64,000 nucleotides of DNA from an uncultured Acidimicrobiaceae bacterium (GTDB lineage: Bacteria > Actinomycetota > Acidimicrobiia > Acidimicrobiales > Bog-793). The stretch covers positions 139,235 to 203,234 of the forward strand of contig CAWHOY010000007.1 in NCBI GenBank assembly GCA_963831155.1, given 5' to 3'. The translations under genes and the position numbers were made by a program. The notes under the pieces are model-generated. The model saw nothing but the letters and a program-made list of their open reading frames with translations. It was not told where the DNA came from and searched no databases. How positions within the stretch are numbered: the stretch's first letter is position 1; every line of letters begins with the position of its first letter. This document shows, piece after piece, positions 30,282 through 55,939 of the stretch.

Positions 30282-33200
30282 TCAGCCGGGTAACGCTGAG
30301 GCGGCACGCTGTGCCGGGTAGCGCTCCGCCAGGCGATCAAGCAGCGGCGTGACCCCGAGCAATTCGATTCCGTCACGCGCGGCCGCGGCTGCTTCCGCTG
30401 CCTCTGGGCGCGAGTCGAGCAGGAACGCCATGTCGACTTGGCAAAGGGCGAGATCGAATGGCGCCTCGAGCTCTCGCCACGCCCGAGTGGCACCCGTGTA
30501 CGTCGCCACCGATTGGTCGAGCTCACCGCTCAGTGCTGCGACACCAGCTTCGACAGTTTGCCGCAATGCGTCCATCCGGCGTCCATGGAAGTTGTCGATC
30601 GCAGCACGCGCTGTGGCCGCTCGTTCCCTGTCCCGCAACCACAGCGCCGCTCGCGCCTGGACCTGGAGGGCGGACGGGCCGTTGATGCCGGCGGGGTCGA
30701 CTGCGACCGCCGCCTCGGCACCGGCGTACGCGGATTCGAGTTCGCCGGAGATGAGACGCATTAGCGCGAGGTACCAGAGGTTGGTCGCGCGCATGTGAAT
30801 GTACGCCGCGGCTTCCGTTTCCTTTGCGAGCCGCTCAAGCTCGCGAATTGCTTGGCCGATGTCGCCGGTCAGCCCTTCGAGCAACGCTCTCGCGCAGTCT
30901 CGAAAATGCATCTGGCTGCTGTTCTCCTCTCCGAGGTGCATCGCGTCGACATCGGCAATCGCGCTGCGAGCCGTATCCCACTCGCCGAGGAGGAGCGAGA
31001 ACTCGGCCACGTTGAGGAGGTTGATCGTTTCGAGCGGGCGGTTTCCGGCTCGGCGCGCCACAGGGACCGCCCTCAGCGCCGCGTTCAAGGACTCGCGCGG
31101 CTCGTCGTCGGTCGCCGTAACGCCGAGAGAAGTGAGGTAGTCGGCCAGTTGGCCGAGCAGCCCGCTCGTCTCGGCGATCGCGACTCCCCCTCTATACAAG
31201 ATGAGGGCCTCTTTGTGACGGCCCATCGAAAAGAGCGAATGAGCCTTTGATTGGAGGGCTTCGAGAAAGGTCTCCGGGGCGTCGAGATGCTCGACGATGG
31301 CGAGGGCCCGTTCGGCCCAGTCGTGCGCGCGCCGCTGTTCGCCGACCATTGTCGCCAGCGCCGCCATCGTCTGGGCGAGCTCCGCGCGTACGTGTTGGTC
31401 ACCGTCGGCGTCAAGCGACTCAAAGGCCGCCTCGGAACGTCGCGACGCTTCATCGAATCTTCCAAGGAAAGCGAGCGGAATCGCCGCCCGTGCGACGGCG
31501 CGGCCGGCGGCGTCGCGGTCTCCGGCAGCGTCGAAGTCCCGATGCGCCTGCTCGTAGAGCTCGACGGCGCGTTCGTTCGAGCCCGAAAGCTGTGCCGCCC
31601 GGCCGGCGAGCAGCGAAAGCGTGCCGCGCTCTCCGGTTGCCGACGGGATCTCGAGCGCCTGGTCGAGGTAGGAGAGCGCCTGTTCCGGCGCCCCCAACGA
31701 GAGTGCGCGTTGCCCGGCGCCGACGAGCGACTCGCGAGCCCGCGCCCCGAGCTCGTCACGTTCGGGTCCTTCAGGAGATGTTCGGTGCGCCTCGAGATAG
31801 TGGGCGGCGACGACCCCGACGAGCTCGTCGTCAACAAGTGACTCGTAATACCTGGCGGCCAAGAGGTGTTTTCCCCGCCGGTCCTTGCGCGAAAGCGTCG
31901 AGTAGGCGACCTCGCGGATGACGCTCTGCAGAAAGCCATACTGGCCGCGCTCTGGCGAACGCGGATCGATGTCGACGGAGAGGAACTCTTTCCGAGCGAG
32001 ATCGCGGAGCTGACTCTCGAGCTCTTCTTTCCCCCTTCCCGTCAATGCCGAAAGTGCACTCGTGCTGAAGCTCTTTCCGAGCACGGCCGCGTCTTGAATA
32101 AGGGCGCGCTCGCCCTCTGGCAACGAGTCAAGCCGCGAGGCAATCAGGGCATGCAAGCTGTCCGGTATCTCGAAGTCGGTGAGTTCGCCCGAGGCCTCGT
32201 AGGTTCCGCCCCGTTCCCTCAGAAGGCCGTTGCCCGAGAGCATGCGAACGATTTCCACCGCGTAGAGCGGCACGCCTTCAGCTCGTTCGAGGATCGCCGC
32301 TGACAACGAAGCCGGGATTTCTTGAATCATCCCTTTGAGGAGTTCACCCATCGCCTCACTGTCGAGCGGCTCGAGGTGGAGCGAAGTGAAACTGCGCTGC
32401 CCCGCTCCCCAACTCGGGCGCCTCTCGAACAGTTCCGGGCGGGCGAGAACGACAACGAGAATGGGGTGACTCTTTGACCATTCGAGTACGAATTCGATGA
32501 AGTCGATCATTCCGGAATCGGCCCACTGGAGATCCTCGAAGACCATAACGACCGGCGCGCGTTCCGCAATGTGCTCAAAGAACGTCCGCCAAGCGGAGAA
32601 AGTCTCCTCGCGCGCCCCCTGTGGCGAGGCGGAAAGGCCGAGAAGGTGGGCGAGGCGTGTTTCGATCCAAGAGCGCTCGTCCTTGTCGGCGACGAACTCG
32701 TCCACGGAGTCGGCGAGCTTCCTTCGCGCGGAGGAATGCTCCTCGTCTTCGGCGATCCCGGCGCGCATCCGGATCATCTCGGCGAGGGCCCAGAAGCTGA
32801 TGCCCTCCCCGTAGGCGGGGCTGCGACCCTGGTGCCAGTAGATCGTCTCGACCAGCCCGTCGACGTATTTCTGGAACTCCCACGCGAGGCGGCTCTTTCC
32901 GATGCCGGGTATTCCTGTTACCGAGACGAGCCGAGCACGTCGTTCCCGCCCGACACCATCGAGCGCGTCCTTGAGTGAGCGGAGCTCCTCGACACGTCCG
33001 ACGAATGGCGCCTCGATGCCCCTTGGTCGTCCGACCCCTTGACGTTGCGCCACCACCCGCAGCGCACGCCAGGCGTGGACGGTCTCTTCCTTCCCCTTCA
33101 GGACGAGCTCACCGGCGTCGACGTAGGAAATGGCGTGGTTCGTTGATGTGAACGTCGCCTCGCCGACGAGTGCCGAGCGCGGATCGGCCACGTTCTGCAG

Positions 33201-33809
33201 CCGGGAGGCGGTATTGACGAGGTCGCCGGCAACCATCCTTTCGCCGATGCCGCCGCGGTTGATCGCGGCCTCTCCCGTCATGACGCCGGCGCGCGCCGCG
33301 AGCCCGGGGACATTGACTTCTGTACCGAGGGCGGTGATCGCCTCGATGAGGTCGAGGCCACAGCGAACCGCCCGCTCGGCGTCGTCTTCGTGGGCGACCG
33401 TCGCTCCCCAAACCGCAAAGACGGCGTCGCCGATGAAATTGTCGACGAAGCCCCCGTATCTTTCGATGACTGACCGGCAAACCTCGGCGAAACGCATGAG
33501 AAGGTCGCGAACCTCTTCGGCGTCCCGACTCTCCGAAAGGCTCGTAAATCCCACGAGGTCAGCGAACAGGACTGAAACCAGCCTGCGCTCGGCAAGAGAG
33601 GGTCCCGGTGGTGTCGACTCGACTTCCCTCCCTTGCGGTTGCGTGCCTGTAACCGCTGGCGAAACCGCCGTTCCGCACTGCTCGCAGAAGCGTTGTCCTG
33701 TCTGCACCGGAGCGCCGCAGGCGCTGCAGGCGAGCAGCATTGTGTAGCCACAACTGCCGCAAAAGCGAGCCGACGAGCTGGCTTCAACGCCACAATTCGA
33801 ACAGCGCAC
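30282..33809 (-). CDS. Double zinc-ribbon + class III nucleotide cyclase + STAND/AAA ATPase + TPR protein
   Basis: Four N-terminal CxxC pairs; 'LFADLVGFT', 'FIGDA', 'GDLVNTASRLQ'; Walker A 'GIPGIGKS'; Walker B 'VFEDLQWAD'; helical C-terminus. Confidence 0.92.
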   Translation of the reverse strand: MRCSNCGVEASSSARFCGSCGYTMLLACSACGAPVQTGQRFCEQCGTAVSPAVTGTQPQGREVESTPPGPSLAERRLVSVLFADLVGFTSLSESRDAEEVRDLLMRFAEVCRSVIERYGGFVDNFIGDAVFAVWGATVAHEDDAERAVRCGLDLIEAITALGTEVNVPGLAARAGVMTGEAAINRGGIGERMVAGDLVNTASRLQNVADPRSALVGEATFTSTNHAISYVDAGELVLKGKEETVHAWRALRVVAQRQGVGRPRGIEAPFVGRVEELRSLKDALDGVGRERRARLVSVTGIPGIGKSRLAWEFQKYVDGLVETIYWHQGRSPAYGEGISFWALAEMIRMRAGIAEDEEHSSARRKLADSVDEFVADKDERSWIETRLAHLLGLSASPQGAREETFSAWRTFFEHIAERAPVVMVFEDLQWADSGMIDFIEFVLEWSKSHPILVVVLARPELFERRPSWGAGQRSFTSLHLEPLDSEAMGELLKGMIQEIPASLSAAILERAEGVPLYAVEIVRMLSGNGLLRERGGTYEASGELTDFEIPDSLHALIASRLDSLPEGERALIQDAAVLGKSFSTSALSALTGRGKEELESQLRDLARKEFLSVDIDPRSPERGQYGFLQSVIREVAYSTLSRKDRRGKHLLAARYYESLVDDELVGVVAAHYLEAHRTSPEGPERDELGARARESLVGAGQRALSLGAPEQALSYLDQALEIPSATGERGTLSLLAGRAAQLSGSNERAVELYEQAHRDFDAAGDRDAAGRAVARAAIPLAFLGRFDEASRRSEAAFESLDADGDQHVRAELAQTMAALATMVGEQRRAHDWAERALAIVEHLDAPETFLEALQSKAHSLFSMGRHKEALILYRGGVAIAETSGLLGQLADYLTSLGVTATDDEPRESLNAALRAVPVARRAGNRPLETINLLNVAEFSLLLGEWDTARSAIADVDAMHLGEENSSQMHFRDCARALLEGLTGDIGQAIRELERLAKETEAAAYIHMRATNLWYLALMRLISGELESAYAGAEAAVAVDPAGINGPSALQVQARAALWLRDRERAATARAAIDNFHGRRMDALRQTVEAGVAALSGELDQSVATYTGATRAWRELEAPFDLALCQVDMAFLLDSRPEAAEAAAAARDGIELLGVTPLLDRLAERYPAQRAASALPG

Positions 33810-33910: not shown

Positions 33911-33993
33911 GCGGGTGTGGCGGAATTTGGCAGACGCGCCGGGTTTAGGTCCCGGTCCCTTCGGGGGTGGAGGTTCGACTCCTCTCGCCCGCA
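33911..33993 (+). tRNA. tRNA-Leu(TAG)
   Basis: Acceptor GCGGGTG/CGCCCGC plus discriminator A; D-arm with GG; anticodon arm CCGGG-TTTAGGT-CCCGG; long variable arm; T-arm GGAGG-TTCGACT-CCTCT. CCA not encoded. Confidence 0.95.
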
Positions 33994-34108
33994 CGCACGT
34001 AGCTCTTTGCGAACCGATCGCACGATGTGCGGCGTCTATACGCGACCGAAGCGCGGGCGGCGTCGGTGTGCAGGATCTCTGGCTCAAACGGAAAAAGGGA
34101 GTCGCGAA

Positions 34109-35329
34109 GTGCGTGTGCTGTTGTCGACGTATGGCGGGCGCGGGGACGTCGAACCGCTGGTGAGCCTTGCCGTTCGGTTACGGGACCTGGGCGGCGAGGT
34201 ACGGGCGTGCGCGCCGCCGGACCGCGGCGAGCGGCTCGCCGAATTCGGCGTGCCGCTGGTGCCGGTCGGCCAGCCGGTGCGCCCGCTGCTGCACGGGCCA
34301 AGGCCGGCTTCGGCGGCGGACGTGCCCCGGATCGCGGCCGAGTTGATCGCCGCGCAGTTCGACGCGCTCGCCGGGGCAGCCGAGGGATGTGATGCGCTAA
34401 TGGCGACCGGCCTACTGCCGGCCGCGGCCGGCGCGCGGTCTGTCGCCGAGCATCTGGGCATCCGCTACCTATACGCGGCCTACTGTCCAATTTTTCTGCC
34501 CTCGCCGCACCACCCACCGGTGCCGCTTCCGGGTCGGCCGCTACCGCCGGACGTGACCGACAACCGAGTGCTGTGGGACCTGAACGACCAGAGCGCGAAC
34601 GCGCTGTTCGGCGCGGCGCTCAACGCCCGCCGGGCGTCGAGCGGCTTGTCGCCAGTGGACAACGTCTACGACTACGCCTTCACCGACCATCCCTGGCTGG
34701 CGGCAGACCCGACTCTGGCTCCCTGGAAGGAGACGGCGGAACTCGACGTCGTACAGACGGGCGCGTGGACGCTGCCGGACGAGCGCCCGCTGCAAGCGGA
34801 GCTGGTGGCTTTCCTGGACGCCGGCCCACCACCGGTGTACGTGGGCTTTGGCGGTATGCCCATGCGCGCCCCGGAGGACATCGGCAGGGTGGTCATCGAG
34901 GCGGTGCGCTCCCAGGGCCGCCGAGCCGTCGTTTCGGCCGGTGCGGCCGAGCTGGCCCTGATTGACGAGCGGGACGACTGCTTCGCCATCGGCGAGGTCA
35001 ACCAGCAGGCACTGTTTCCTCTAGTGGCCGCCGTCGTGCACCACGGCGGCGCGGGCACGACGACGACAGCCGCCCGGGCCGGCGCGCCTCAAGTGGTGGT
35101 GCCCCAGATGGCGGACCAGCCCTACTGGGCCGGCCGAGTGGCCGAGCTCGGCATCGGCACGGCGCACGACGGCCCGGCTCCGACCACCGAGTCCCTGGCG
35201 GCCGCGCTCAGGACCGCGCTGACCCCCGAGACGCGCGCACGCGCGGCAGCCGTCTCGGGCACGATCCGGACCGACGGGGCGAGGGTGGCCGCGACACTGC
35301 TGCTCGGCGCGGCCAGACCAGCGACTTGA
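34109..35329 (+). CDS. GT1 glycosyltransferase, Rgt (rifamycin)/GtfA-E (glycopeptide)-like
   Basis: 'MRVLLSTYGGRGDVEPL', 'WLAADPTL', 'QTGAWTLPDERPL', 'EVNQQALF', 'HHGGAGTTTTAARAGAPQVVVP', 'DQPYWA', 'TIRTDGA'; GTG after 'aaaagggag'. Confidence 0.85.
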   Translation: MRVLLSTYGGRGDVEPLVSLAVRLRDLGGEVRACAPPDRGERLAEFGVPLVPVGQPVRPLLHGPRPASAADVPRIAAELIAAQFDALAGAAEGCDALMATGLLPAAAGARSVAEHLGIRYLYAAYCPIFLPSPHHPPVPLPGRPLPPDVTDNRVLWDLNDQSANALFGAALNARRASSGLSPVDNVYDYAFTDHPWLAADPTLAPWKETAELDVVQTGAWTLPDERPLQAELVAFLDAGPPPVYVGFGGMPMRAPEDIGRVVIEAVRSQGRRAVVSAGAAELALIDERDDCFAIGEVNQQALFPLVAAVVHHGGAGTTTTAARAGAPQVVVPQMADQPYWAGRVAELGIGTAHDGPAPTTESLAAALRTALTPETRARAAAVSGTIRTDGARVAATLLLGAARPAT

Positions 35330-35467
35330 ACGCGCCGGGCTGAGCCCAGATTCGCTATCCGGTCTTCATCCGCAAAGCGCTCGAGTTCTGGTCGTGCGCG
35401 AGACAACGATGCTCCCGGTGTCCGAAGGTCAGTTTCCGGCGGCTCGAGTCGCCTACCCGGCGCAGCC

Positions 35468-36472
35468 CTAGAGCTCAATCTCGATCGTTTGACCTTGCCA
35501 CTCCACCGTCAACGCGCGGGCAGCTGACGCCGCATCATCGTTCGCCTCCTCGGGGACAAAGTACGAACGCCCGGCCCAGTCGCCGGTCGCTTGCGGCTCG
35601 GAATCACCGAGTGCGAGCAGATAGCGCTCATTTGCGTCTACCGAGATCTTTAGAAATTGCGGCCCTTCCGGTGTGCCGTGCCTTCGCGGCTCGCCGGGAT
35701 CTCTCGTCGCCCTCGCGCGCCGCCCGCCGGGGCCAGTGATCAGGCGCTGAATGGGCTGGCGAAGGCGGCGCATCCCCCCGAAGGGGGCATTCGGATCGCG
35801 CTGCAGCAAATCGAGGAGCGGCTTGGGCACGCCGGAGAGCTTCCAATGCACTTCGATGTCGTTCTCGTAGAACAAGATCCCGACCACCCGGAAGTCGATT
35901 CCCTCTCGGGAGAGAGAAAGTTCCGGTCCAGGAATTACCCGCGTCGGGTATCGCGGCCAATCGAACTCTTGCACGAGGCGCGTTATGCGAGCCGTGTTGG
36001 AGGACACGGACTCTTGTTCGACGGCCGGATGGTCATACCCCTCGAGAAGCGAGATGACGACACCGCGAACTTTGGGCAAGTCAGCACCGAGGCTCTGAAG
36101 GACCTGAGCAGCGACTCCTTCGCCTTCCCGAACGAGTCCGAGGAGTATGTGCTCGGTCCCGATGTAGTTATGCCCGAGCTGCAGTGCTTCGCGCAGGGAG
36201 AGCTCCAACACTTTCTTTGCGCGGGGAGTGAACGGCATCTCCACGCTCGCCTGTGTTCGGCTGGCGGGTCCGATTGTCTCTTCGACTCTCTCTCGCACCT
36301 CCTCAAGCGAGATATCGAAGGAGCGGAGCGCCTGTGCAGCGAGTCCTTCGCCCTCGTCGATCAAACCGAGCAGGAGGTGCTCGGTTCCGACGAAGCCGTG
36401 ATTCATCAGGCGTGCTTCGTTTTGGGCGAGGACGAGTACTCGGCGAGCCCGATCCGTGAACCGCTCGAACAC
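35468..36472 (-). CDS. ClpC N-terminal-domain protein fused to an unrecognised C-terminal domain (no AAA+ module)
   Basis: First ~145 aa '[12 protein letters not shown]...GTEHLLLGL...[33 protein letters not shown]' match the actinobacterial ClpC NTD. No Walker motifs downstream. Confidence 0.88.
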
Positions 36473-36652
36473 AGGCTCAGGCTATGCATTTGGCATGGCC
36501 CTAGCGCATCAGTTTTGGCCGACTGACCTCGAGATGGCTGCGGCGGTTGTGGCGGCGTCGGCTCTTTTGATGTTCGTACCCTTGGGGGCGGAGCCCCTGT
36601 CGCCTGCGCAAACAAACGGGTGAACAGCCGTCCGGGCGAAGGAGGAACTCAG

Positions 36653-37081
36653 ATGACCGTGGTCGCGATCCACCTCGGAGAGGTCGAAGGTGGTCCGCTG
36701 CAATCGGTCGCCTCGGTGCGGGCACTCGCAGGTAAAGGTCTCGTCGGCGACCGCCATTTCGATGAGGACGGAGCGAGTTCCGGGCGCGCACTCACACTCG
36801 TGGAAGAAGAGGTCGTCAACGACGCCCGACTTTCCGAAGGTGCGACCCGCAGACAGCTAACGGTTCGAGGAGTGCGCTTGAACGACCTCGTCGGAAAGCG
36901 CTTTCGAGTCGGCGACATCGAGTGCTACGGCGTTGAACTCTGCGAGCCGTGCGGCCACCTACAGAGTATGACGAGACCTGGCATCGTCAATGAGCTCGCG
37001 CACCGAGCGGGCATCAATGCCGACATCCTTTCCGACGGCACGATCGCGGTTGGAGATCCGGTCTCAGCGATCGACACCTAA
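36653..37081 (+). CDS. MOSC-domain protein
   Basis: 'GKGLVGDR', 'TRRQLTVRG', 'LVGKRFRVG', 'CEPC'; RBS 'ggagga'. Confidence 0.85.
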   Translation: MTVVAIHLGEVEGGPLQSVASVRALAGKGLVGDRHFDEDGASSGRALTLVEEEVVNDARLSEGATRRQLTVRGVRLNDLVGKRFRVGDIECYGVELCEPCGHLQSMTRPGIVNELAHRAGINADILSDGTIAVGDPVSAIDT

Positions 37082-37105
37082 ATGGGGGTGTTCATTCCCA
37101 CTACG

Positions 37106-37124
37106 GGCTGCGAACACCGCAGCC
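37106..37124. terminator. Short GC hairpin between the convergent MOSC and arfB genes
   Basis: ggctgcg-aacac-cgcagcc. Confidence 0.35.
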
Positions 37125-37130
37125 GCGGCG

Positions 37131-37553
37131 TCATTCATCCGACGGTGGCGATTGGCGAGACCGCTTCACCTCGCTCCGCTTGCGCTTTTCCTGGAGTCGG
37201 CGTTCCTTCGACGCCTTGGTGGGCGACGTCGGCGTCCTGGGTCGTTCAATCTTCAACGCGTCGATGAGGCGAGTCTGGAGTCGCTCGAGCGCGAGTTCGC
37301 GGTTGCGCGCCTGAGAGCGCGTATCGGAGGCGACGATCCGCACCAGCGGGCCGAATCGCTCAAGGATGCGGGCACGTTGTCGAGGCCCGAGCGATGTCGA
37401 CGCCGCCACGTCGAAGACGACTTCGACGCGCGTATTTGCAGTATTCGCGTGCTGACCGCCCGGTCCACCGCTACCGCTGAATCGCCATTCGAGTTCTTCG
37501 AGTGGAATCCGTGTCCTGCGACCGATGTGAAGCGCTCGATCATCACCGCTCAT
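37131..37553 (-). CDS. arfB: Alternative ribosome rescue peptidyl-tRNA hydrolase ArfB
   Basis: 'SGGPGGQHAN' (GGQ), 'RSQARNRELAL', basic C-terminal tail. Confidence 0.92.
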   Translation of the reverse strand: MSGDDRALHIGRRTRIPLEELEWRFSGSGGPGGQHANTANTRVEVVFDVAASTSLGPRQRARILERFGPLVRIVASDTRSQARNRELALERLQTRLIDALKIERPRTPTSPTKASKERRLQEKRKRSEVKRSRQSPPSDE

Positions 37554-37603
37554 GACGTCACGGCAGTCGTGCGCAACTCCTCGCCGGATCGGGACTCAGC
37601 CGA

Positions 37604-37825
37604 CTATTCGTCCTCGTTGAGCTTCTCTGGGTCGTCCAGCATGGCGTCGGCTTCGAGCGCTTCGACGACGTCGATCGGTCCGACCTCGTCCTCGACTTCG
37701 TCGTCGAAATCGATCTCGCTGTCCCTCGACGCGACGTCTGCTGCATCTTCCGGTATCAGGGGATCGGAGTGCTCAATGACCGGGATTTCGTCGTCGTCTT
37801 GATCATCGAACTCTTCCCTCGTCAT
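37604..37825 (-). CDS. Small hyper-acidic hypothetical protein (73 aa)
   Basis: ATG after 'ggagagg'. About 32 of 73 residues are D/E by my count. Confidence 0.65.
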   Translation of the reverse strand: MTREEFDDQDDDEIPVIEHSDPLIPEDAADVASRDSEIDFDDEVEDEVGPIDVVEALEADAMLDDPEKLNEDE

Positions 37826-37920
37826 CGCCTCTCCGTCCAATCGGGTCGCGGCACAGACTGTTCAACGTCCGCCACTCTCGTCAGTCTCGTGGATCGTACC
37901 GATGCTGGTGGCAACAACAT

Positions 37921-38982
37921 CTAGACCTCTGCGACGGCGGCCGTGATAGCCGCCGCGAACTCGTCGACGTCCTCTTCGGTGGTGTCAAAGGCGCTCATCC
38001 AACGCACCTCTCCCGTGTCGTCGTCCCACACATAGAAATGGAACTTGGACTGGAGGATCGAAGTCACCGACGGATCCAAGACGGCGAAGACAGCGTTCGC
38101 CTCGACGGGTCGCGTGATCGACACCCCTCTGAGACCCTTGAGCCTCGCAGCGAGGCGCCGGGCCATCGCGTTCGCGTGCTTCGCGCTTTCGAGCCAGAGG
38201 TCCCCCTCCAAGAGCGCGACGAGTTGCGCGGAGATGAAGCGCATCTTCGAAGAGAGCTGCATCGATGACTTTCGCAGGTGATCGAGCCCTCGCACCACTG
38301 TCGGGTCCAGAACGACGACGACCTCCCCGAGCACGAGGCCGTTCTTCGTTCCCCCGAACGACACGACGTCGATGCCGACGTCGGTCGTGAACGCCTTGAA
38401 GCCGAGACCGAGGGTGGCCGCGGCGTTCGCCAGGCGGGCGCCGTCGACATGGACCCTCATGCCGACGTCGTGGGCGCGCACGCAGATCCTGGCGAGCTCG
38501 TCGGGGGTGTAGCACGTGCCGAGCTCGGTCGTCTGGGTCACCGATACGACGCGCGGAGCGGCGCGATGCGGGTTGTCCCACCCGAAGGCTTCCTCCATGA
38601 TCGCCTCGGCCGTCATCTTCCCGTTCGGCGCTGGGACTGGGATGAGTTTGATCCCTGCCAATCGCTCGGCGGCGGCGCACTCGTCGGTGTTCAGGTGTGA
38701 TGACACGGCGCAGACCACCGATTCCCACCGATCGGTCATCGCCTGGAGGCTGACGACGTTCGCCCCCGTCCCGTTGAACACCGGGTACGCCTGCGCGTTC
38801 TCACCGAAGTGGTGTCGGATCAGATCCCGCAGTCGTTCGGTGTAGACGTCCTCGCCGTACGAGGGCTGGTGCCCACCGTTCGCGGCGACGAGCGCTTCGA
38901 GGATCCGCGGATGCGCTCCAGCGCAGTTGTCGCTCGCGAACGAGCGTTGCCCGGGATCGTGCAGAGATGAAGAGGGGGTCAC
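37921..38982 (-). CDS. Low-specificity L-threonine aldolase
   Basis: 'FASDN', 'NGTGAN', 'HVDGARLANA', PLP Lys in 'FGGTKNG'. Confidence 0.9.
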   Translation of the reverse strand: MTPSSSLHDPGQRSFASDNCAGAHPRILEALVAANGGHQPSYGEDVYTERLRDLIRHHFGENAQAYPVFNGTGANVVSLQAMTDRWESVVCAVSSHLNTDECAAAERLAGIKLIPVPAPNGKMTAEAIMEEAFGWDNPHRAAPRVVSVTQTTELGTCYTPDELARICVRAHDVGMRVHVDGARLANAAATLGLGFKAFTTDVGIDVVSFGGTKNGLVLGEVVVVLDPTVVRGLDHLRKSSMQLSSKMRFISAQLVALLEGDLWLESAKHANAMARRLAARLKGLRGVSITRPVEANAVFAVLDPSVTSILQSKFHFYVWDDDTGEVRWMSAFDTTEEDVDEFAAAITAAVAEV

Positions 38983-55051: not shown

Positions 55052-55939
55052 TCAGGAGCGAGGGTGGGCCTTTTCGTAGACGGCGAGGAGCCGCTCTTTT
55101 GAGACGTGGGTGTAGCGCTGGGTAGTGCGCAGGCTGGCGTGACCGAGCAGCTCCTGTACGACCCTCAGGTCCGCCCCCCCGTCGAGAAGGTGCGTCGCGT
55201 AGGTATGGCGGAGCGCGTGAGGGTGGGTCGGCGAAGCCGCTCGTGCGTCGACCGACCGCCGCACGTCCCGCGGCGACATCCGGCGCCCCCTCCGGTTGAA
55301 GAACACCGCTTCTTTCGGCGAGTCCTTCTTCATCAGCAGAGCCCGCCGGCCCTCGAGGTACCTCGACAGGGCGTCGACGCTCGGCTCGCTCATCGGCACC
55401 CGCCGCGACTTGTTCCCTTTTCCGACAACAGTCACCGCGCCGCGATCGAGCTCGAGGTCCCCCAGGTCGAGGTCACAGCACTCGGCGACGCGCAGCCCGG
55501 ATCCGTAGAGCAGCTCGACGATCGCGTCGTCGCGAGCGGCAACGGCGAGCGTCACCGAGTCGGCGCCCTCGGGTCCTTGCTGTTGTCCCAAGAGCGCGGC
55601 GAGCTCTCCTGGCCCGAGCACCTTTGGCAGGCGACCCTCCCCCGACGGCGCGCTCAACCGGCGGGCAGGGTCGTCGTCGACGAGATGCCGGCGAAGCGCG
55701 TAGGCGAAGTAGCGCCGGAGCGACGCCGCCTTGCGGGCGATCGATCGACGGGCGAAGCCGCGCGTCGACAGATAGGCGAGGTAGCGGCGGAGCATGATCC
55801 GGTCGACCTCGCCCGGCCCGTCCACTCCGGCGCGCCCCGCCCACTCGGCAAAGGCATCGAGATCACTGCGGTACGCCCTTCTTGTCGCCGGTGACGCCGA
55901 GGTGAGCGAGCGGGAGAACCCATCGAAATCCCAGCTCAC
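55052..55939 (-). CDS. xerC: Tyrosine recombinase XerC
   Basis: 'LLYGSGLRVAE', 'GKGNKSR', 'HPHALRHTYATHLL', 'LGHASL.TTQRY'; conserved position upstream of rpsB. Confidence 0.88.
   Translation of the reverse strand: MSWDFDGFSRSLTSASPATRRAYRSDLDAFAEWAGRAGVDGPGEVDRIMLRRYLAYLSTRGFARRSIARKAASLRRYFAYALRRHLVDDDPARRLSAPSGEGRLPKVLGPGELAALLGQQQGPEGADSVTLAVAARDDAIVELLYGSGLRVAECCDLDLGDLELDRGAVTVVGKGNKSRRVPMSEPSVDALSRYLEGRRALLMKKDSPKEAVFFNRRGRRMSPRDVRRSVDARAASPTHPHALRHTYATHLLDGGADLRVVQELLGHASLRTTQRYTHVSKERLLAVYEKAHPRS

Follow-up and report, generated by a model that had tools for sequence, protein, structure and literature searches.

A stand-alone Rgt-like glycosyltransferase gene, likely acquired into a tRNA-Leu slot of an Acidimicrobiaceae genome and lacking the rifamycin-associated element of its family

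Introduction

The glucosyltransferase Rgt uses UDP-glucose to place glucose on the C23 hydroxyl of rifamycin, and rifamycin-associated elements (RAEs) are stated to precede all known rifamycin-inactivating enzymes and to be required for induction (10.1101/2021.05.10.443488). Rgt is likewise cited in PMC10719064 and PMC13214531. The RAE regulon of Actinobacteria comprises rgt, rox, rph, arr, and helR. Two other sets of enzymes offer comparison, namely (i) the glycopeptide-tailoring GtfB/GtfE, GtfA, and GtfD (PDB 1iir, 1pn3, and 1rrv) and (ii) promiscuous, uninduced antibiotic GT1 enzymes, such as Ngt-1 of Bacillus thuringiensis, which modifies an antibiotic without being induced by its own substrate, belongs to the YjiC/YojK family, and has a His base (PMC13214531).

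Here, we analyzed a 64,000-nt stretch of DNA from an uncultured Acidimicrobiaceae bacterium (hereafter, the window), in which a glycosyltransferase (GT) gene follows a tRNA-Leu gene (Table 1). The reading we favor, at slightly better than even confidence, is that this gene, likely acquired into the tRNA-Leu slot, encodes a possibly eroding rifamycin glucosyltransferase that stands outside its regulon and has a predicted expression that is weak, constant, and uninduced.

Table 1. Features of the tRNA-Leu slot and its glycosyltransferase gene, in window coordinates.
Feature	Position	Strand	Basis or remark
tRNA-Leu(TAG)	33911..33994	+	ARAGORN; 3' end is the left border of the variable slot
114-nt spacer	33995..34108	+	no RAE, terminator-like site, or stable fold
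Putative gene-facing -10 box relic of the RAE module	34066..34085	+	CAGGAT at 34071-34076 keeps A2 and T6
Ribosome-binding tail	34097..34108	+	same 12-nt tail precedes the start codon in many homologue loci
GT1/GT-B glycosyltransferase, Rgt/Gtf family	34109..35329	+	406 aa; Pfam, NF000354, GtfB match, structure model
Clp_N-domain gene, older slot cargo	35468..36472	-	also in G003 at 88% nt identity; absent from the empty site
Degenerate repeat of the 3' half of the tRNA (remnant of an att site); right slot border	36579..36607	+	shuffles

Results

The gene encodes a full-length GT1 enzyme

The open reading frame runs from a GTG start to a TGA stop without internal stops, and its product carries the Pfam domains Glyco_transf_28 and EryCIII-like_C. 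Its GT1/GT-B assignment is given by two Rossmann domains, an N-terminal base, and the HHxGxGT and D-Q donor motifs, with Asp13, His311-His312, and Asp336 all retained, and the predicted structure (pLDDT 89) superposes on GtfB and GtfD with TM scores of 0.88-0.93. Kinship with Rgt and the Gtfs along the whole length, as claimed in an earlier note on this DNA, was borne out: the best curated family is the Rgt model NF000354 (501 bits, cut-off 800) and GtfB leads the matches to solved structures (519 bits), as compared with 77 bits for a sterol GT and 35 bits for YjiC, whose family includes Ngt-1. GtfB/GtfE, GtfA, and GtfD share with the window protein the fold (TM 0.88-0.93), 61-65% identity, Asp13, and the HHxGxGT motif. 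A host housekeeping lipid or sterol glycosyltransferase is scarcely credible: Pfam PF03033, which the protein contains, is common to sterol glucosyltransferases, but the sterol GT match is far below that of GtfB, just 4 of 60 relatives (2 of 4 within the genus) have close homologues, and the gene is a codon outlier located in a variable slot.

The window GT lies apart from both Rgt and the glycopeptide Gtfs

In our comparisons, Rgt1438 is represented by its model only, and the best scorers against that model stand in for it. The NF000354 cut-off is very narrow, since neither any of 88 proteins (433-624 bits) nor anything in two sets of 151 and 81 genomes (top scores, 708 and 670 bits, respectively) reached 800 bits. 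Mean identity of the window GT to 36 RAE-bearing near relatives is 78%, as compared with 64% to 18 of the best Rgt-model scorers and 65% to 11 GtfB types. Its acceptor half is 57% identical to the best Rgt-model scorers and 76% identical to the near relatives. Four motifs had been read as closer to Rgt; all four are present, and two of them (EVNQQALF and DQPYW) do side with Rgt, but the closeness does not extend to overall identity or to the 31 columns that separate the Rgt set from the GtfB types, at which the window GT matches GtfB in 16, Rgt in 6, and neither in 9.

Trees of 243, 70, and 42 rows (rows shorter than 370 aa and duplicates excluded) placed the window GT among RAE-bearing stand-alone rows, as sister to L100 and L126 (support 100/98). 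AU tests rejected its grouping with the Gtfs (p 0.004), with the best Rgt-model scorers (p 1.6e-16; 42 rows, with the proxy set for Rgt1438), and with the copies found in congeners (p 7e-5). The Gtf clade, whose rows were chosen as tandem arrays in Amycolatopsis-genus genomes (two matched to PDB GtfB at 662 and 639 bits), received 100/100 support without the window GT. Its likeness to Rgt1438 resides in the full-length model match, the C-terminal motifs, the stand-alone gene, and the leader tail; it differs in scoring below 800 bits, in forming a separate clade, in having lost the RAE, and in the alteration of three near-invariant residues. By inference the enzyme would work like Rgt, yet by score, clade, and missing RAE it falls outside Rgt in the strict sense.

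It is very improbable that the window GT is a stray glycopeptide-tailoring enzyme of the GtfB/GtfE type that glucosylates vancomycin-type aglycones. GtfB does lead the solved matches by sequence (65% identity) as well as by fold, relatives are labeled 'vancomycin aglycone glucosyltransferase' by JGI, and one tree joins the Gtfs with the wider group of the window GT. However, GtfB wins by default, because no Rgt structure is among the matches; the joint clade is rejected as above; an RAE-type leader is absent from 41 tandem Gtfs, whereas the window GT retains the tail of one; and the window gene is neither in a tandem array nor in a biosynthetic cluster. As the earlier note had observed, no NRPS, PKS, or sugar-pathway genes lie nearby, none being found by Pfam in 41 window ORFs (of ~52 called; 2 of the 41 lacked any match).

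In two IQ-TREE runs, the glycopeptide Gtf clade (L269-L279) fell inside the RAE-bearing radiation, as sister to L054, which is linked to an RAE, rox, and helR. This placement, next to the group of the window GT, is tentative, since the alternative to it survived the AU test (p 0.47) and FastTree with a distant outgroup differed.

The family is widespread and linked to the RAE and to helR or rox

The window GT had been called an orphan, which in the sense of rare it is not: it has at least 7998 homologues, 120 of which are listed at 76-100% identity, and the best homologue among the matches listed is 84% identical. Judged by sequence, it is an ordinary member of a very large, widespread actinobacterial family. 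One GT among thousands matters little alone; as for the family, annotations routinely call its members 'vancomycin aglycone glucosyltransferase', and the Rgt model fails to pick them up.

In the GTDB set, 78 of 80 loci gave 81 starts, 65 of which are preceded by an RAE core within 1 mismatch; in the metagenome set (near-duplicates included), this holds for 51 of 66 starts. The other 2 of the 80 GTDB loci and 14 of the 80 metagenome loci were dropped for having no usable start or upstream region. The RAE nearly always lies 71-76 nt (∼73 nt) before the GT start, which is the place that it also occupies in the best Rgt-model scorers. Moreover, of 80 loci, 37 have helR within 6 kb, 7 have rox, and 43 have either of the two, counts that include kin genomes and are hence non-independent. 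All 43 of these linked loci bear an RAE, and none of the 12 RAE-less loci has such a neighbor. The neighbor identities pass the NCBIfam cut-offs (HelR, ∼1300 versus 750; Rox, 877 versus 800).

Rifamycin appears the likeliest substrate of the window GT, because the family carries the RAE and is linked to helR or rox and because of the stated roles of Rgt and the RAE; this support, which backs the earlier proposal of rifamycin, is by association, through relatives whose genomes are not independent. Membership in a broad RAE-associated, Rgt-like family is likewise given by nesting in the tree and by the RAE and helR/rox linkage of the relatives, not of this locus. While its relatives belong to the actinobacterial RAE regulon, neither an RAE module nor a HelR, Rox, Arr, or Rph above cut-off was found in the host genome; HelR was over cut-off in none of 61 related genomes searched. 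Host RpoB keeps residues that we take to be rifamycin-contacting and typical of a rifamycin-sensitive enzyme. The GT could thus be useful to its host, which looks sensitive and lacks the four other determinants over cut-off. Going by its RAE and helR/rox linkage, the family probably makes up a large, hidden share of the rifamycin resistome in soil.

Several observations concern the spread and architecture of the family. RAE-bearing homologues occur in records titled Bosea (L080:6001-7236) and 'Enterobacteriaceae' MAG (L039:6001-7227), the latter of which may be mis-binned, and homologues lie on 22 plasmid records, including those of Microvirga, Devosia, and Gemmatirosa. GT domains fused to ∼250 extra C-terminal residues (648-662 aa; L078:7286-9232, L083:2888-4831, L235, L270, and L279) are found beside RAE-less copies or inside Gtf arrays.

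The RAE has been lost upstream of the window GT

The absence of an RAE from 33994-34108, reported in the earlier note, stands: the best match to the core has 5 mismatches of 11, and the spacer reaches 1.8 bits (E 0.16) against a profile built from 133 RAE-bearing upstream regions. Nothing in the host genome exceeded 10 bits with this profile. A decayed whole RAE in the spacer was rejected as not significant, by the profile as well as by alignment to the leaders of relatives. The putative -10 relic matches the L126 upstream region at 18 of 20 nt (2 of 2000 shuffles were as good) and aligns weakly to positions 56-103 of the family profile; it has no significant match to four other upstream regions compared. 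On this comparison, the RAE, the -35 region, and the outward-facing -10 box are gone from the window, and the ribosome-site tail and the 20-nt -10 relic remain.

The missing RAE reads as a loss and does not indicate another origin. The RAE core before the copies in relatives has 1 mismatch in G003, 2 in G004, 0 in G021, and 1 in G033; among the sisters of the window GT, the RAE is worn in L100 and absent from L126; and RAE-less stand-alone GTs recur in the family (31 rows).

Neither a terminator-like site nor a consensus promoter was found in the spacer, and its fold (z = 0.53) is not stable. Expression by read-through from the tRNA-Leu gene is possible, because no terminator-like site or stable fold lies between the tRNA and the GT; the retained -10 relic would be an alternative source of transcription.

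The RAE resembles the shared core of two promoters

Members of the family pass from genome to genome and have repeatedly shed the switch, and natural before-and-after pairs are thereby available; their comparison shows an RAE that has a -10 box at 19 bp on either side, offering a mechanistic lead. Around intact RAEs, each strand has a -10-like hexamer (A2, T6) at a distance of exactly 19 bp from a TTGC-type -35. This spacing was found in 142 of 144 GT leaders for the gene-facing box and in 132 of 144 for the outward box, with other spacers (16-18 and 20) found in at most 4, and the outward box fits the consensus better than the gene-facing one. Both boxes are also present in 28 of 29 class-wide RAE sites before helR, rox, rgt, and other genes (31 loci, 29 scored); the leader and site rows come from upstream of homologues in L020-L283 and from L290-L319. 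The RAE thus looks like the -35 core shared by two back-to-back promoters, a model that would explain which half of the module survived in the window.

A Bacillus two-promoter rifampicin sensor with 19-bp spacers has been described in a source that calls the RAE mechanism unresolved (PMC12802891); according to other reports, the RAE overlaps one -35 only (PMC10719064), and deletion of half an RAE abolishes resistance (10.1101/2021.05.10.443476). A literature search, which covered mainly open main texts and few subscription papers or theses, returned no publication on the sub-family or on an outward-facing RAE promoter. A thesis is said to deal with RAE induction. A conserved terminator on the outward RAE transcript was rejected, z being below -2 in just 31 of 145 cases. 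Among 61 related genomes, the only strict match to an RAE plus -10 box is L284:1521 (G035), where both -10 boxes are present.

The GT gene was likely acquired horizontally

Codon usage was compared with that of 958 script-called genes of 300-600 codons from the same genome, an assembly of 2.9 Mb that is 96% complete and for which a comparison of the flanks weakly favors Acidimicrobiia as the host class. The heavy use of CTG and GTG described in the earlier note was confirmed: CTG/(CTG+CTC) is 0.78 versus a genome median of 0.31 (binomial p 1.5e-7), GTG/(GTG+GTC) is 0.69 versus 0.34 (p 6.7e-5), and G+C is 0.728 versus 0.656, and in all three the GT ranks first of the 958, with a single tie that is presumably its own ORF. 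Its Karlin B (0.371) is matched or exceeded by 13 of the 958 genes. Two measures, however, are ordinary: the CAI-like index (0.625 versus a median of 0.654), which is no higher in 292 of 958 genes, and GC3, which 155 of 958 genes reach. The bias is typical of the family, with medians over 157 homologue genes of 0.73 for the CTG share, 0.66 for the GTG share, and 0.733 for G+C; the GT has therefore kept the style of its donor. Horizontal acquisition, as had been proposed, is likely from the codon outlier, the patchy distribution, the variable tRNA slot, and the tree.

The earlier note had placed a full-length GT1 115 nt after the tRNA; the tRNA is tRNA-Leu(TAG), and the gap is 114 nt. Similarity to the congener G003 ends at 33998, and the slot varies among relatives. 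In G002 it is empty, with the tRNA-Leu followed by ∼90 nt and then a MOSC gene; the interval from tRNA-Leu to MOSC is 1.8 kb in G001 and ∼1.1 kb in G021; in G004, ∼3.8 kb follow the tRNA-Leu before the next shared match; and the slot of G003 contains a PadR/ABC/permease block and the Clp_N gene also seen in the window, together with a degraded repeat of the tRNA 3' end. The right-border remnant in the window was equaled in score by 35 of 5000 shuffles, and the copy at the equivalent position in G003 is clearer (86.5% over 52 nt). The hallmarks of a tRNA island are thus seen in an empty site in a relative (G002) and in a direct repeat, though a degenerate one. No integrase lies inside the slot, 33995-36620 holding just the GT and Clp_N genes.

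The GT copy of G003 itself lies ∼70 kb away, ending ∼220 nt from the 3' end of a tRNA-Val, and is 82% identical in nucleotides to the window GT, as against 87-91% for the flanks. Because the contents of the slot vary, its repeat is worn, and the G003 GT is elsewhere and more divergent than the flanks, we infer that an old integrated element left this slot behind and that the GT arrived separately. Vertical orthology with the G003 and G004 copies was rejected by this divergence, by the different site, and by the AU test above (p 7e-5), and the window GT would have been acquired independently of the RAE-bearing copies in these two congeners. An assembly artifact at the junction is unlikely, because a soil-run contig from a related population spans 33966-38500 with the GT in place, at ∼6% differences; near-identical contigs are also present in soil sequencing runs.

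Linkage to a tRNA as a trait of the family was rejected, since none of 77 scanned loci has a same-strand tRNA directly upstream. Between G003 and G004, the copies (L002/L016 and L003/L017) share 92% identity over 1.4 kb, although their neighborhoods are not the same and the backbones of the two genomes differ more; the RAEs of both copies are worn. This suggests exchange of the GT inside the genus. The Clp_N gene (35468-36472) has Clp_N domains and a C-terminal region without a Pfam match, and other Clp_N-like matches occur in the genus; contigs of two soil runs diverge at 35723 into other sequence, which suggests an insertion in this gene in part of the population. On the other side of the tRNA and divergent from it, 30282-33809 encodes a Zinc-ribbon/guanylate cyclase/AAA/TPR protein that has many paralogues in congeners and has moved between sites in the genus. 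A tyrosine recombinase at 55052-55939, adjoining rpsB and 19 kb from the slot, is probably XerC/D-like rather than the integrase of the slot.

A working, a decaying, or a re-purposed enzyme

In the favored reading, that of a rifamycin glucosyltransferase off its regulon, a GT from a family that typically sits ∼73 nt behind an RAE, often adjoining helR or rox, would have entered a slot that is empty or otherwise occupied in congeners, keeping its family codon habits while losing the RAE, the -35 region, and the outward-facing -10 box. Going by this linkage and the Rgt literature, UDP-glucose would be held by the C-terminal domain, Asp13 would serve as the base, and glucose on the C23 hydroxyl would block binding of rifamycin to RNA polymerase; transcription, from the leftover -10 box or by tRNA-Leu read-through, would not be inducible by rifamycin. 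Against this reading, the case for rifamycin activity in the sub-family is one of association; in addition, the protein reaches 501 of 800 bits, is separated from the best Rgt scorers (AU p 2e-16), shares only 57% of its acceptor half with them, and has Ser249, Trp279, and Arg305 replaced. Descent from the RAE regulon is common to this reading and to the two that follow.

The three replacements (Ser249 to Gly, Trp279 to Ala, and Arg305 to Leu) all affect near-invariant C-terminal positions. Ser249 is present in all 164 RAE-bearing rows and in all 31 RAE-less rows compared, and Trp279 and Arg305 are each conserved in 162 of 164 RAE-bearing rows. Both donor-site loops, that of the GFGS serine and the GW loop, are thereby altered; by analogy with Gtf structures, these loops would bind the donor. 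Such changes, together with the loss of the RAE and -35, could point to a decaying relic of the same origin, barely expressed after the switch was lost and losing activity, which we consider doubtful. In its favor, Leu305 looks recent, because related soil populations have Arg at this position (among 40 of 341 differences listed); a second assembly has a tail frameshifted past residue 378, which may be a sequencing error; and RAE-less rows have drifted more, with a mean of 3.6 conserved-column differences versus 2.0 in RAE-bearing rows, although this comparison is biased, because the columns were chosen from the RAE set. However, the frame is full-length, the GT is in place in the related population despite ∼6% differences, and RAE-bearing rows also reach such numbers of changes, with four or more in 28 of 164. 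Pairwise dN/dS against three relatives is 0.23-0.29, which likewise speaks for a working enzyme, but this value partly reflects time preceding the RAE loss, and the measure is noisy, because two RAE-bearing pairs gave 0.56-0.57.

Alternatively, the clade of the window GT, L100, and L126 may have left the rifamycin regulon for another acceptor or sugar donor, which we regard as unlikely. In all three, the RAE is worn or missing and the conserved Trp279 loop is lost; the family has switched substrate before, the glycopeptide Gtfs being one of its clades; promiscuous, uninduced antibiotic GT1 enzymes such as Ngt-1 are known (PMC13214531); and 16 of the 31 diagnostic columns are GtfB-like. On the other hand, the changes lie outside the acceptor domain, because the acceptor half is 76% identical to that of RAE-bearing near relatives, and L100 and L126 have unlike neighbors that hint at no pathway. 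A bolder form, in which this clade escaped rifamycin control and gained a new donor or acceptor specificity, from a large RAE-regulated branch where the vancomycin-tailoring Gtfs may also originate, is more speculative still; if it holds, new chemistry would have drawn on a resistance enzyme at least twice.

As a further observation on the active site, Asp13 is replaced by Gly in 18 of 164 RAE-bearing rows (L137, L044, L051, and others), with an Asp at position 9 where seen, and these rows possibly have a shifted catalytic base.
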